The position numbers and the translations under genes were made by a program. From a virus, in IMG/VR virus record IMGVR_UViG_3300033148_008158: DNA of 10,711 nucleotides; one strand, 5' to 3'. Under the pieces are notes generated by a model. That model made no database searches. It was given only the letters and a program-made list of their open reading frames with translations, and had not been told where the DNA came from. This document shows, piece by piece, positions 1,942-4,656 of the stretch (positions are counted from its first letter, which is position 1; every line of letters starts with the position of its first letter).

Positions 1942-4656
1942 TCAGAGCCGATCCGAGTCAGCCGTGGGTTTTAGCGACGGGCTTCTTGCGAGGGTCGGGC
2001 TGTGTGACCTCCGCCGTTGTTGGGAACGGCCTTCTCTTGCATGGCCTTGACGAGGCCCTCCATGGGCGTCCCTGCGAACACCTTGGTGACGACATCGACC
2101 AAGTCCTTGCCGCCCATGAACTTCTGAACGCTCATGGCTTCGGCGACCTTGCAGCAGGGCCTCCGAGAAGCCCGCCTGAGCGGCATTGAGCTTCGCGACG
2201 GTAGCCTCGGTCTCCTTGACCATGGCGTTGAGGCGGAGGGCCTGCCTGGCTTCCTCGATGGCGTTGTTGTTGTCCGCCGCAGCCCGCTGCCGTCCGATCT
2301 CGGCCTGGGTGGCGGCATCCTTGAGAGCGTCCTGCTCCTTCTGGGCTTCGAGGTTCTTGCTCGCCTGTTGGATGTCCGCGTCGATGCGGGCCAGAGCCAT
2401 CGTGATCACGCGAGCGATGTCGTCGGTGTCGAACTTGGCCTTGATGTCAGCGGTCTCGGCCTTGATCTTCATCTCCTGCTGGTCGAGTCCCTCCCGGCGT
2501 TTGGTGGCTTCGAGCCGGCGCTGGGCAGAGGCCAGAGAGATGCTGGTCGCAACAGCCTCGTGCTGAGCTTGGACGAGCAAGCTCTGGATGCTGTCATCGC
2601 CGATCTTGACCATGAGAACCTCCACGTCGTAGACGACCATGCCGTTCTCAGTGAAGACCATGCCCGTCCGCTCGCTGCCATCCTCGGGCTTCTTGCCCAG
2701 GATGGTGTCGCGGATGAAGTCCTCACCGATGGGCCAGAAGTCCTCGACCTTGATCTTGCGAATGGCCGCCTTGAGCACGCTTCGGACGTGGTCGCAGAGG
2801 TGCTTGACGTAGTTGCCCACGCCGAACCACTTGATGCGGTCCTCGTCGGTCTCGCTCGTGAAGTTGACCCGCAGGGCCACCTTCAGCTCGACGGGTACCA
2901 GATCCGAGGTCTCGGCCGTCACGAGGTCCGTGACCTTGTTGTGGTCGATCTGGAGGTAGGCCGTCTGGAGCGGGTGATCGGTGGTCTTGGGCTTGCCCGT
3001 CGAGAGCGAGAGCGCTTCGAGCGTCTCGTTGAACCCGAGCAGGACTCGCTTGGGGCCGACCTCGACCCGGCGCTCACCGGCGGTGTCCACGACCATGATG
3101 GCGTAGCCCGTCCAGATGTTGATCTTGGGTACACCAGCGAACTTGTCGCTGCCCAGGGTGACCGTCCTCGGCTCAGTGTACGAGGCCGCCCGGCTGAACT
3201 CGTTGCCGGCCAGCTCGACGGTGGAGTGTCCAGCCGAGTGGCTGGCATCCGCGAACTGAGCATCGCCGACAGCGAGACCCTTCTTGGTACTTCGGCGCCG
3301 CTGTCCCCGCTGGTAGTCGCCTTCGGAGACGATGCCCTTGCGGGTGGTGGGAGCCTTGCGCTGGATCTCCCAGAGCGCCAGGTTGTATTCCTTCACCTCG
3401 TCATTGCCGGGGTACATGATGTCGCACTCGGCCTCGGTCAGAGACCTACGAGCGAAGACATCCCTGCGGGGGTCGGGCAGGCACATAACGCCTTTCTTGC
3501 CACCCTCGACAATGTCGTTCTCACCCGTGTGGCGGTCCAGGACGTAGCGGCCGTCACCGGCCGGGATGGCCGTGGCGTAGTGCTTGGTCTTGCCGTCGTA
3601 GCGGATGGCCGAGTGCTGCTCGCAGGGGAAGTAGATCGGGGTCGTCTCACCCGTGATGAACAGCTCCTGACCTTCCTCGTAGGTTTCGCCCTTCGGGCCG
3701 TGGAGCCCCTCTTCGTCCGTGTACTCGGCGATGACCTTGATGTGCAGGCCCTGGATCTTGCCGTTCAGCTCGATGGGAGTGAAGATGCGCTCACCGTCAT
3801 CGTTGGTGAAGAACTTCTCGGTCGGCAGCGGGAAGACCACCTCCGGCCCTCGGACGTACCGCTTGTCACCGGACTCGCCGACGAGGATGCAATACTGGAG
3901 TCGCTCCAAGGTGAGGGCCTCGCGGACGTAGTGGCTCTGCTCGTCCTTGCAAACCTCGATGCCAGTGGGCGGGATGTAGAAGCTGACCTGGGTGCCGCGG
4001 ATGACCAGGAGCCGGCCTACGGACAGGTCTTCGGGGATGTCGGCGGAAGCAACGACTGCACCCTCGGGGCGGATCTCATCGAAGGACTCGTCCGAGGCGG
4101 TATCGTCAGTCTTCTTCGTGCCATCGGAGGTGGTAGCAGCCTTCTTCACGACGGCTGTGGTCCAGCTCTCCTTGGCGGACTCTTCGTCGTAGACGCGGAC
4201 CATGAGGTACTGGTTGCTGCGGAGCTGGTGGCCCTCGATGACCTCAACGTACTGCTGGGGCCAAAGAGCGAAGCACTCGGGGCCGGGGATGTGGATCCGT
4301 TGGCCGATGAGCAGCCCTTTGCAGTTGGTCTTGCCACCCTCGTCGGGGAAGTTGCCGTCCTTGCTCGGGTTGTTGAGCATGGCGTAGGCACCCGTGGGCA
4401 CGACGATGTCGGCTTGAGCGGCCTCACTCAAATTGACGGTCCGGAATCGACCGAGGCTCTTGTCGTAGACGACGGCTTCATCTTTGCCCTCGGCAACGAC
4501 GGAGCACGGACCGCGGCGGACGTAGGTGACGCCACTGGTCGTGTCCCTGGTGTAGGCGAACTCGCCCTCGGGCAGGACCAGCTCGTTGGTGGTCCGTCGT
4601 GCCGGCCGTCCTCGGGCTGCCTCTGCTTCGTAGTCGCGCTCTGATGTCATCTTCAT
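1942..4656 (-). CDS. mvp: major vault protein (MVP) homologue, full length; C-terminus frameshifted (true end probably 1971 in the +1 frame)
   Basis: Translation is collinear with eukaryotic MVP. N-terminal MVP-repeat-like segments are present (LPEGEFAYTRDTTSGVTYVRRGPCSVV...AVVYD). The shoulder domain matches well (ERRVEVGPKRVLLGFNETLEALSLSTGKPKTTDHPLQTAYLQIDHNKVTDLVTAETSDLVPVELKVALRVNFTS, compared with human [30 protein letters not shown]...[25 protein letters not shown]). The cap-helix coiled coil (LVQAQHEAVATSISLASAQRRLEATKRREGLDQQEMKIKAETADIKA) follows. Length is ~895 aa against 893 for human. A GAGGT SD precedes it; the start may be the second ATG (4650). The last ~70 aa of this frame are Arg-rich junk, while the +1 frame (1971..~2157) encodes plausible MVP C-terminal sequence. 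Confidence 0.85.
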   Translation of the reverse strand: MKMTSERDYEAEAARGRPARRTTNELVLPEGEFAYTRDTTSGVTYVRRGPCSVVAEGKDEAVVYDKSLGRFRTVNLSEAAQADIVVPTGAYAMLNNPSKDGNFPDEGGKTNCKGLLIGQRIHIPGPECFALWPQQYVEVIEGHQLRSNQYLMVRVYDEESAKESWTTAVVKKAATTSDGTKKTDDTASDESFDEIRPEGAVVASADIPEDLSVGRLLVIRGTQVSFYIPPTGIEVCKDEQSHYVREALTLERLQYCILVGESGDKRYVRGPEVVFPLPTEKFFTNDDGERIFTPIELNGKIQGLHIKVIAEYTDEEGLHGPKGETYEEGQELFITGETTPIYFPCEQHSAIRYDGKTKHYATAIPAGDGRYVLDRHTGENDIVEGGKKGVMCLPDPRRDVFARRSLTEAECDIMYPGNDEVKEYNLALWEIQRKAPTTRKGIVSEGDYQRGQRRRSTKKGLAVGDAQFADASHSAGHSTVELAGNEFSRAASYTEPRTVTLGSDKFAGVPKINIWTGYAIMVVDTAGERRVEVGPKRVLLGFNETLEALSLSTGKPKTTDHPLQTAYLQIDHNKVTDLVTAETSDLVPVELKVALRVNFTSETDEDRIKWFGVGNYVKHLCDHVRSVLKAAIRKIKVEDFWPIGEDFIRDTILGKKPEDGSERTGMVFTENGMVVYDVEVLMVKIGDDSIQSLLVQAQHEAVATSISLASAQRRLEATKRREGLDQQEMKIKAETADIKAKFDTDDIARVITMALARIDADIQQASKNLEAQKEQDALKDAATQAEIGRQRAAADNNNAIEEARQALRLNAMVKETEATVAKLNAAQAGFSEALLQGRRSHERSEVHGRQGLGRCRHQGVRRDAHGGPRQGHAREGRSQQRRRSHSPTLARSPSLKPTADSDRL

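Follow-up and report, generated by a model that had tools for sequence, protein, structure and literature searches.

The 10,711-nt IMG/VR virus record IMGVR_UViG_3300033148_008158 (hereafter the window) encodes on its minus strand a homolog of the major vault protein (MVP) whose reading frame is broken shortly before its 3' end. The break is real in the contig and is explained by a 26-bp deletion in an mvp gene of huge phages that is normally single-frame. We consider it probable that the window carries a deletion allele (Δ26) of such a gene in a huge-phage-like element. Δ26 represents an ordinary disruption of the gene or, with lower probability, an error of assembly; no novel mechanism is involved.

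The frame break and the 26-nt deletion

Two kinds of sequence served as references. The first is an intact 901-aa MVP from Joint Genome Institute (JGI) data, P0001, identified by protein search. The second is a set of sibling contigs: L001 (Ga0366833_1009799, sample 3300033141), which encodes P0001, and, recovered by exact-protein look-ups with neighboring genes, L015 (sample 3300033143), L016 (3300033153), L017 and L023 (3300033149), and L019 (3300033143 and one more sample). The window is itself a complete JGI metagenome contig. The JGI gene call for the window's open reading frame (ORF) is P0121, a protein of 902 aa that starts at the second ATG, at 4650, and is the only other member of P0001's 90% cluster. 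With G+C content at third codon positions abbreviated as GC3, the features of the gene are as follows.

4656..1942, minus strand: the MVP ORF, 904 codons (904 aa) from the first ATG, with TGA at 1944-1942
2152..4656, minus strand: the frame-0 part of MVP, comprising N-terminal repeats, shoulder and cap-helix, to ...AAQAGFSEALL (Pfam, identity to P0001, profile match to human/rat MVP, AlphaFold model of P0001)
2151..2152, minus strand: the deletion junction, or scar (global alignment to L001, multiple DNA alignment, sister contigs, start of L019)
1971..2150, minus strand: the conserved MVP C-terminal module in the +1 frame, KVAEAMSVQKFMGGKDL...ARPSQEARR, with TAA at 1973-1971 (GC3 of 0.90, identity to P0001, conservation)
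1942..2151, minus strand: the out-of-frame frame-0 tail, 69 residues with TGA at 1944-1942 (GC3 of 0.30, non-preferred codons, no homolog coverage)

Global alignment of the reverse-complemented window to L001 reveals that 26 nt (GCTCTGGGCAACCAGGACACCATGGT) are absent between G2152 and C2151 on the minus strand, and this single gap aside, the two sequences have no mismatch across the entire mvp gene. The missing bases cover the codons of ALGNQDTM together with bases 1 and 2 of a Val codon. Through their loss, nine conserved codons (ALGNQDTMV) disappear and the final 59 codons come to lie in the +1 frame. The gap is one contiguous block just 3' of CTGCTG, its ends share no microhomology, and the GGCCC run beside it is the same in the window and L001. 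All four sister contigs from sibling JGI samples (L001, L015, L016, and L023) contain the 26 nt and are otherwise identical across mvp. In a DNA alignment of five related loci, whose MVPs are 62 to 100% identical, every locus is single-frame here and the block is absent from the window only. At the protein level, P0001 is 100% identical to the window protein over the first 92% (residues 1-833) and differs at the C terminus, reading ...GFSEALL-ALGNQDTMV-KVAEAMSVQKF... across the site.

The composition of the gene changes at the same place. Frame 0 keeps a GC3 of 0.8 to 0.97 down to about position 2140 and then falls to 0.30, and the GC3 of the +1 frame climbs to 0.90 where that of frame 0 drops. 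Past the break, frame 0 uses non-preferred codons (CAA, GGT, CGA, CAT, CGT, and TCA), and the resulting tail (QGRRSHERSEVHGRQ...DSDRL) is an Arg-rich stretch of 69 residues over which none of the 120 best homologs aligns; in nearly every case coverage ends at about 90 to 92%. The open stretch of the +1 frame spans 2318 to 1971. From AAG at 2150 to position 1974, ahead of the TAA at 1973-1971, it encodes the peptide KVAEAMSVQKFMGGKDLVDVVTKVFAGTPMEGLVKAMQEKAVPNNGGGHTARPSQEARR, whose sequence matches the C-terminal 59 residues of P0001 (843-901) without a difference. This match and the conservation of the peptide in 115 homologs lie far beyond chance. An earlier note, made from the letters of the window and its ORFs, had placed a break near a gcagcagggcc tract, had called the frame-0 end Arg-rich off-frame nonsense, and had taken the +1 peptide for the genuine MVP C terminus. 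All three observations hold: codon bias and homology are lost in frame 0 at 2152/2151, and the position given in the note is right to the base, the junction lying inside the same tract read on the minus strand (ggccctgctgc, 2161-2151). A second shift into the +2 frame over the last 20 codons (AEVTQPDPRKKPVAKTHG, followed by a stop) was also suspected from GC3 and was rejected, because P0001 to P0004 carry the +1-frame ...ARPSQEARR-type C terminus.

Ordinary translation of the Δ26 allele would give a protein of 902/904 aa that ends in the 69 Arg-rich residues. The intact protein has 901 aa, or 903 from the first ATG, and simply joining the two frames of the Δ26 allele would yield 892/894 aa without the nine conserved residues; the earlier note had given a length of ~895 aa. 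Around the deletion, the 3' boundary coincides with the end of the palindrome ACCATGGT, and an inverted-repeat arm of 12 nt stops 2 nt short of the 5' boundary. A hairpin finds little support as the cause of the deletion, the DNA fold of L001 8495-8585 being weak (z = -1.8) and its stem boundaries being off from the deletion ends. In a test for spacers of clustered regularly interspaced short palindromic repeats (CRISPR), a 20-mer from the deleted segment had no match in 185,579 genomes.

Conservation and domain position of the break

The 115 aligned homologs are all single-frame, and residues 834-842 are never gapped among them. Within the missing block, A834 is conserved at 90% and L835 at 92%, and in the module that follows, K843, A845, A847, S849, Q851, G855, G856, F867, and P871 are each conserved at 90% or more.

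Upstream of the break, the window protein has the architecture of an MVP. Pfam MVP_shoulder (PF11978) matches residues 573-687 over the full profile length (E = 3.1e-24), and Vault_3 matches with an E value of 1.2e-8. The N-terminal MVP repeat array is recognized from Vault_3 and from the alignment of the P0001 model to the murine R1-R7 structures (3GF5/3GNG; E = 7e-11 to ~1e-10); the predicted local distance difference test (pLDDT) scores of this model are mixed (mean, 72), and individual repeats were therefore left uncounted. Foldseek matches the same model to whole vault-cage chains with an E value of 1e-30.

A profile of 74 homologs aligns to human/rat MVP at about residues 466-802 (E of about 5e-32). 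This alignment stops at residue 802, equivalent to the ...GF of GFSEALL, at the break. In the 2009 rat vault structure of Tanaka and colleagues, residue 802 is said to be the end of the cap-helix domain, with the cap-ring next. The AlphaFold model of intact P0001 has, after the shoulder, a single long helix of ~140 residues (686-824) that corresponds to the cap-helix, and past it three short helices of low confidence, with pLDDT below 50 for residues 824-858. The end of the human MVP alignment at 802 and the modeled helix therefore put the deletion at the boundary between cap-helix and C-terminal module. This module is out of frame in the window and intact in P0001 and the 115 homologs; the frame-0 product is thus predicted to keep the repeats, shoulder and cap-helix, with the 69-residue Arg-rich tail in place of the module. 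The earlier note had the +1 peptide continue both the cap-helix and the cap-ring regions. It does follow the cap-helix, and the phage module is equivalent to the cap-ring by position alone, no sequence alignment to the cap-ring having been obtained.

Origin of the frame break

Among the causes that the earlier note proposed, a programmed +1 ribosomal frameshift near CUG CUG CAA GGU, which would give a full-length MVP, is very improbable, even though the open +1 frame (2318 to 1971) codes for the conserved C terminus. Its suggestion to look for a slippery heptamer or a rare codon was borne out for the codon only: the junction carries CAA, a minor codon for Gln (18% of Gln codons), which is insufficient to make a shift-prone site. 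Moreover, at CUG CUG CAA GGU CGC there is neither a slippery heptamer nor a stall site, and a P-site tRNA on CUG or CAA cannot re-pair in the +1 frame. The RNA downstream of the junction folds somewhat better than shuffled sequences (z = -2.4), but the same hairpin sequence is found in the intact allele and is thus not specific to a frameshift. Frame 0 runs without a stop for 70 codons past the site, and the joined product is not colinear with its relatives, since it lacks the ALGNQDTMV that is never gapped in the 115 homologs. None of the 115 homologs, 5 related loci, and 4 sister contigs has a two-frame layout, so that the comparison with orthologous loci that the note had called for returned single-frame genes throughout. 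We reject recoding because there is no slippery site and no stop, nine codons are missing, and all relatives are single-frame. Still less credible, and practically excluded, is a sequencing error of a single base in the ccc/ggg homopolymer run. The break does adjoin GGCCC and the net frame change is +1, but alignment to the otherwise identical sister contigs refutes this cause, because the GGCCC run beside the gap is unchanged and the difference is one clean block of 26 nt, not 1 to 2 nt.

The earlier note had also raised an inactivated mvp and an assembly error, and both are retained here, with the contig-boundary evidence favoring a real allele. L015, L016, and L023 all end at window 2038, 114 nt beyond the base that directly follows the 26-nt block on its 3' side, and L019, found in two samples, starts exactly at window 2151 and equals window 2151..1. 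The 114-nt vertex at the 3' edge of Δ26 corresponds to L001 8553-8666. In addition, L015 starts 114 nt ahead of its first single-nucleotide polymorphism (SNP), and L016 starts 114 nt ahead of the point at which an 84-nt deletion allele (Δ84) diverges, a 2-nt microhomology being counted. Three of the contig ends checked are separated from a variant by exactly 114 nt. This suggests that the sibling assemblies resemble unitig graphs with overlaps of 114 nt, built from a mixture of strains. Contig boundaries at the 114-nt vertex in three other samples therefore point to a second incoming path at the Δ26 boundary, and suggest that reads from several samples contain Δ26 as a true variant beside the intact allele. 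The window is itself a distinct genotype, with 8 clustered SNPs relative to L001 that leave the protein of its ArdC-like gene unchanged.

A real deletion allele that co-circulates with the intact one is accordingly our somewhat favored reading. The lesser but serious alternative is an assembly or sequencing artifact, in which the phage in the sample has an intact gene and the gap stems from the joining of paths at a branch vertex or from a chimeric or erroneous read path. Such an origin would fit the coincidence of the Δ26 junction with an exact contig boundary in sibling assemblies, where window 2151..1 is a stand-alone contig, and also the private indels in each sister contig: a 38-nt deletion (Δ38) and a CCAG duplication in L001, and deletions of 84, 61 and 75 nt (Δ84, Δ61, Δ75) in L015. 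L001 alone deviates at the CCAG site, where the window is backed by L015, L016, and the orthologue in the related locus L003, and at the 38-nt site the window is backed by L015, L016, and L017; overall, indels far outnumber non-clustered SNPs. On the other hand, a de Bruijn or unitig assembler cannot make a junction with zero microhomology unless spanning k-mers exist in the reads, the branch position is repeated in three independently assembled samples, which random errors would not achieve, and the start of L016, from another sample, likewise reflects the Δ84 boundary.

Several points weigh against a real, inactivating allele. The branch at the vertex may stem from a different variant, one that last diverges at L001 8552. 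Five contig-private deletions of 26 to 84 nt, with 0 to 2 nt of microhomology, stand against very few point differences; this ratio is unusual for natural divergence and could reflect a technical process, and it is the main argument for a technical cause. The case for a real allele is built on assembled contigs, not on reads. The Δ26 junction was not found in the viral_contigs, metagenome_contigs, or genome_contigs collections; these pattern scans say nothing on allele frequency, because the intact allele gave zero matches there as well. Finally, we infer loss of function of the Δ26 mvp from conservation only. As for wider searches, the C-terminal 158 aa, used as a query for near-identical fragments in other samples, returned only relatives of at most 78% identity, and the whole window had no megablast match in phage and plasmid collections.

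With these points taken into account, Δ26 would be a genuine variant that coexists with the intact allele among the sampled phages. It would belong to a group of short deletions, each private to one contig, and would leave an accessory gene in a loss-of-function or hypomorphic form, with no recoding involved. It is conceivable, though rather unlikely, that at least five co-circulating deletions in a single huge-phage population reflect an end-joining-type process or escape from sequence-targeted host nucleases (CRISPR/restriction), the MVP C-terminal module being dispensable or counter-selected in some hosts.

Other variants and genomic neighborhood

The private deletions in this population measure 26, 38, 61, 75, and 84 nt; two of them are in-frame (84 and 75 nt) and two make ORF fusions. 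The 38 nt that L001 lacks (window 6235-6272) are present in the window, L015, L016, and L017, and their loss fuses a 153-aa ORF (window 6661..6200, minus strand) to the next ORF. A tandem duplication of CCAG in L001 (window ~6006) frameshifts a 103-aa ORF (about 6180..5868, minus strand) that starts MQRRTFLQLIG... and has an N terminus like a twin-arginine translocation signal. This ORF is intact in the window, L015, and L016 and is supported by the L003 orthologue (62% identity over 102 aa). The 259-aa JGI call on L001 is a fusion artifact of the two lesions. In L015, Δ84 (window ~9827-9744) is an in-frame loss within the ArdC-like gene, Δ61 (window ~9151-9091) fuses ORFs of 165 and 79 aa into a 227-aa call, and Δ75 (window ~8718-8644) is in-frame and shortens a protein of 120 aa to 95 aa. 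All 8 point differences between the window and L001 lie within 343 nt (window 9940-10282) of the ArdC-like gene (10548..9673, minus strand), for which L015, L016, and L017 show other mosaic SNP patterns; the SNP cluster looks like a recombination tract among co-occurring strains. Contig ends are likewise shared across samples: window 1 (L001 10703) is the end of L019, and window 10711 is the end of L001's record.

The ArdC-like protein is the sole recognizable neighbor of mvp in the window, as PHROGs and Pfam returned nothing for nine neighboring ORFs. The gene just downstream of mvp (window 1897..1382, minus strand) starts with MTLTRRQALALVPALAIGTTV, which resembles a twin-arginine signal peptide, and it has no Pfam or PHROGs match. 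Beyond the window, L001 carries a microbial-type poly(ADP-ribose) glycohydrolase (PARG) and an HNH endonuclease. The PARG gene (PF10021) lies at L001 11756-12535 and L003 17094-17789, syntenic with mvp and ~3 to 4.5 kb downstream of it, and the MVPs of these two PARG-bearing loci are 74% identical. This synteny is curious, since eukaryotic vaults carry a PARP (PARP4).

The MVP family is large, with 4,761 matches at E ≤ 1e-3 among 8,000 candidates scored. Relatives are found on huge-phage records of 318 to 735 kb, namely GCA_902730355.1 (349 kb; L007), LR756500-LR756503 (462 to 735 kb, 37% identity), and the IMG/VR contig IMGVR_UViG_3300022902_000004 (318 kb; L010). A contig of a giant-virus metagenome-assembled genome (L011) matches the C-terminal part only (residues 748-862, 33% identity). 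PHROGs v4 holds no family that matches the window MVP.

Implications and comparison with known systems

The result is mostly a correction. The database protein P0121 (902 aa) ends in a spurious Arg-rich C terminus of 69 residues, and the family's true C terminus is formed by the conserved module ALGNQxT..KVAEAMSVQ..GGK..VFAGTP. Nothing among the 115 homologs, 5 loci, and 4 sister contigs speaks for recoding in phage MVP genes. If the Δ26 allele is true, it would represent a natural C-terminal truncation of a phage vault-like protein and would place mvp under relaxed or variable selection in this population, which would be modestly useful for tests of the role of phage MVP.

Phage MVPs have already been described (Santos et al. 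2023, preprint, 10.1101/2023.11.10.566534), and bacterial MVP homologs were described earlier (Daly et al. 2013, PMC3762200). The window MVP resides on a bacteriophage-type element and is closest to bacterial-type MVPs. Unlike the phage MVPs of Santos et al., which are on ~100-kb gut Caudoviricetes, the relatives recovered here sit on huge-phage contigs, and unlike other bacterial and phage homologs, the window copy carries a frameshifting deletion.

With eukaryotic MVP (rat/human; PDB 4V60 and 9BW5, among others), the phage protein has in common the Pfam shoulder and Vault_3 domains and a profile match, and the intact phage allele shares, according to its model, the vault-cage fold and the long cap-helix. 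The two differ in that identity is only ~15 to 17%, the phage gene is encoded on a phage-like contig full of ORFans, and the phage C-terminal module (ALGNQ[DE]TLVKVAEAMSVQxFxGGK...VFAGTP) does not align to the eukaryotic cap-ring and is shifted out of frame in the window. The fold comparison is based on a monomer model of the intact phage allele.

Programmed +1 sites include prfB (CUU UGA C), Ty1 (CUU AGG C), and antizyme. The window resembles such genes in that its N-terminal part is followed, in the +1 frame, by a conserved C-terminal part. It differs from them in having no shift-prone P-site codon and no stop or hungry codon with re-pairing, in the lack of conservation of the arrangement, and in the loss of nine codons. 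Compared with deletions caused by replication slippage, those in the window population (26, 38, 61, 75, and 84 nt) are atypical, with only 0 to 2 nt of microhomology. The likeness to strain-level deletion polymorphism and pseudogenization in metagenomic phages lies in the private deletion itself, in the contig breaks at the edge of the variant, and in the presence of other private deletions among the siblings.

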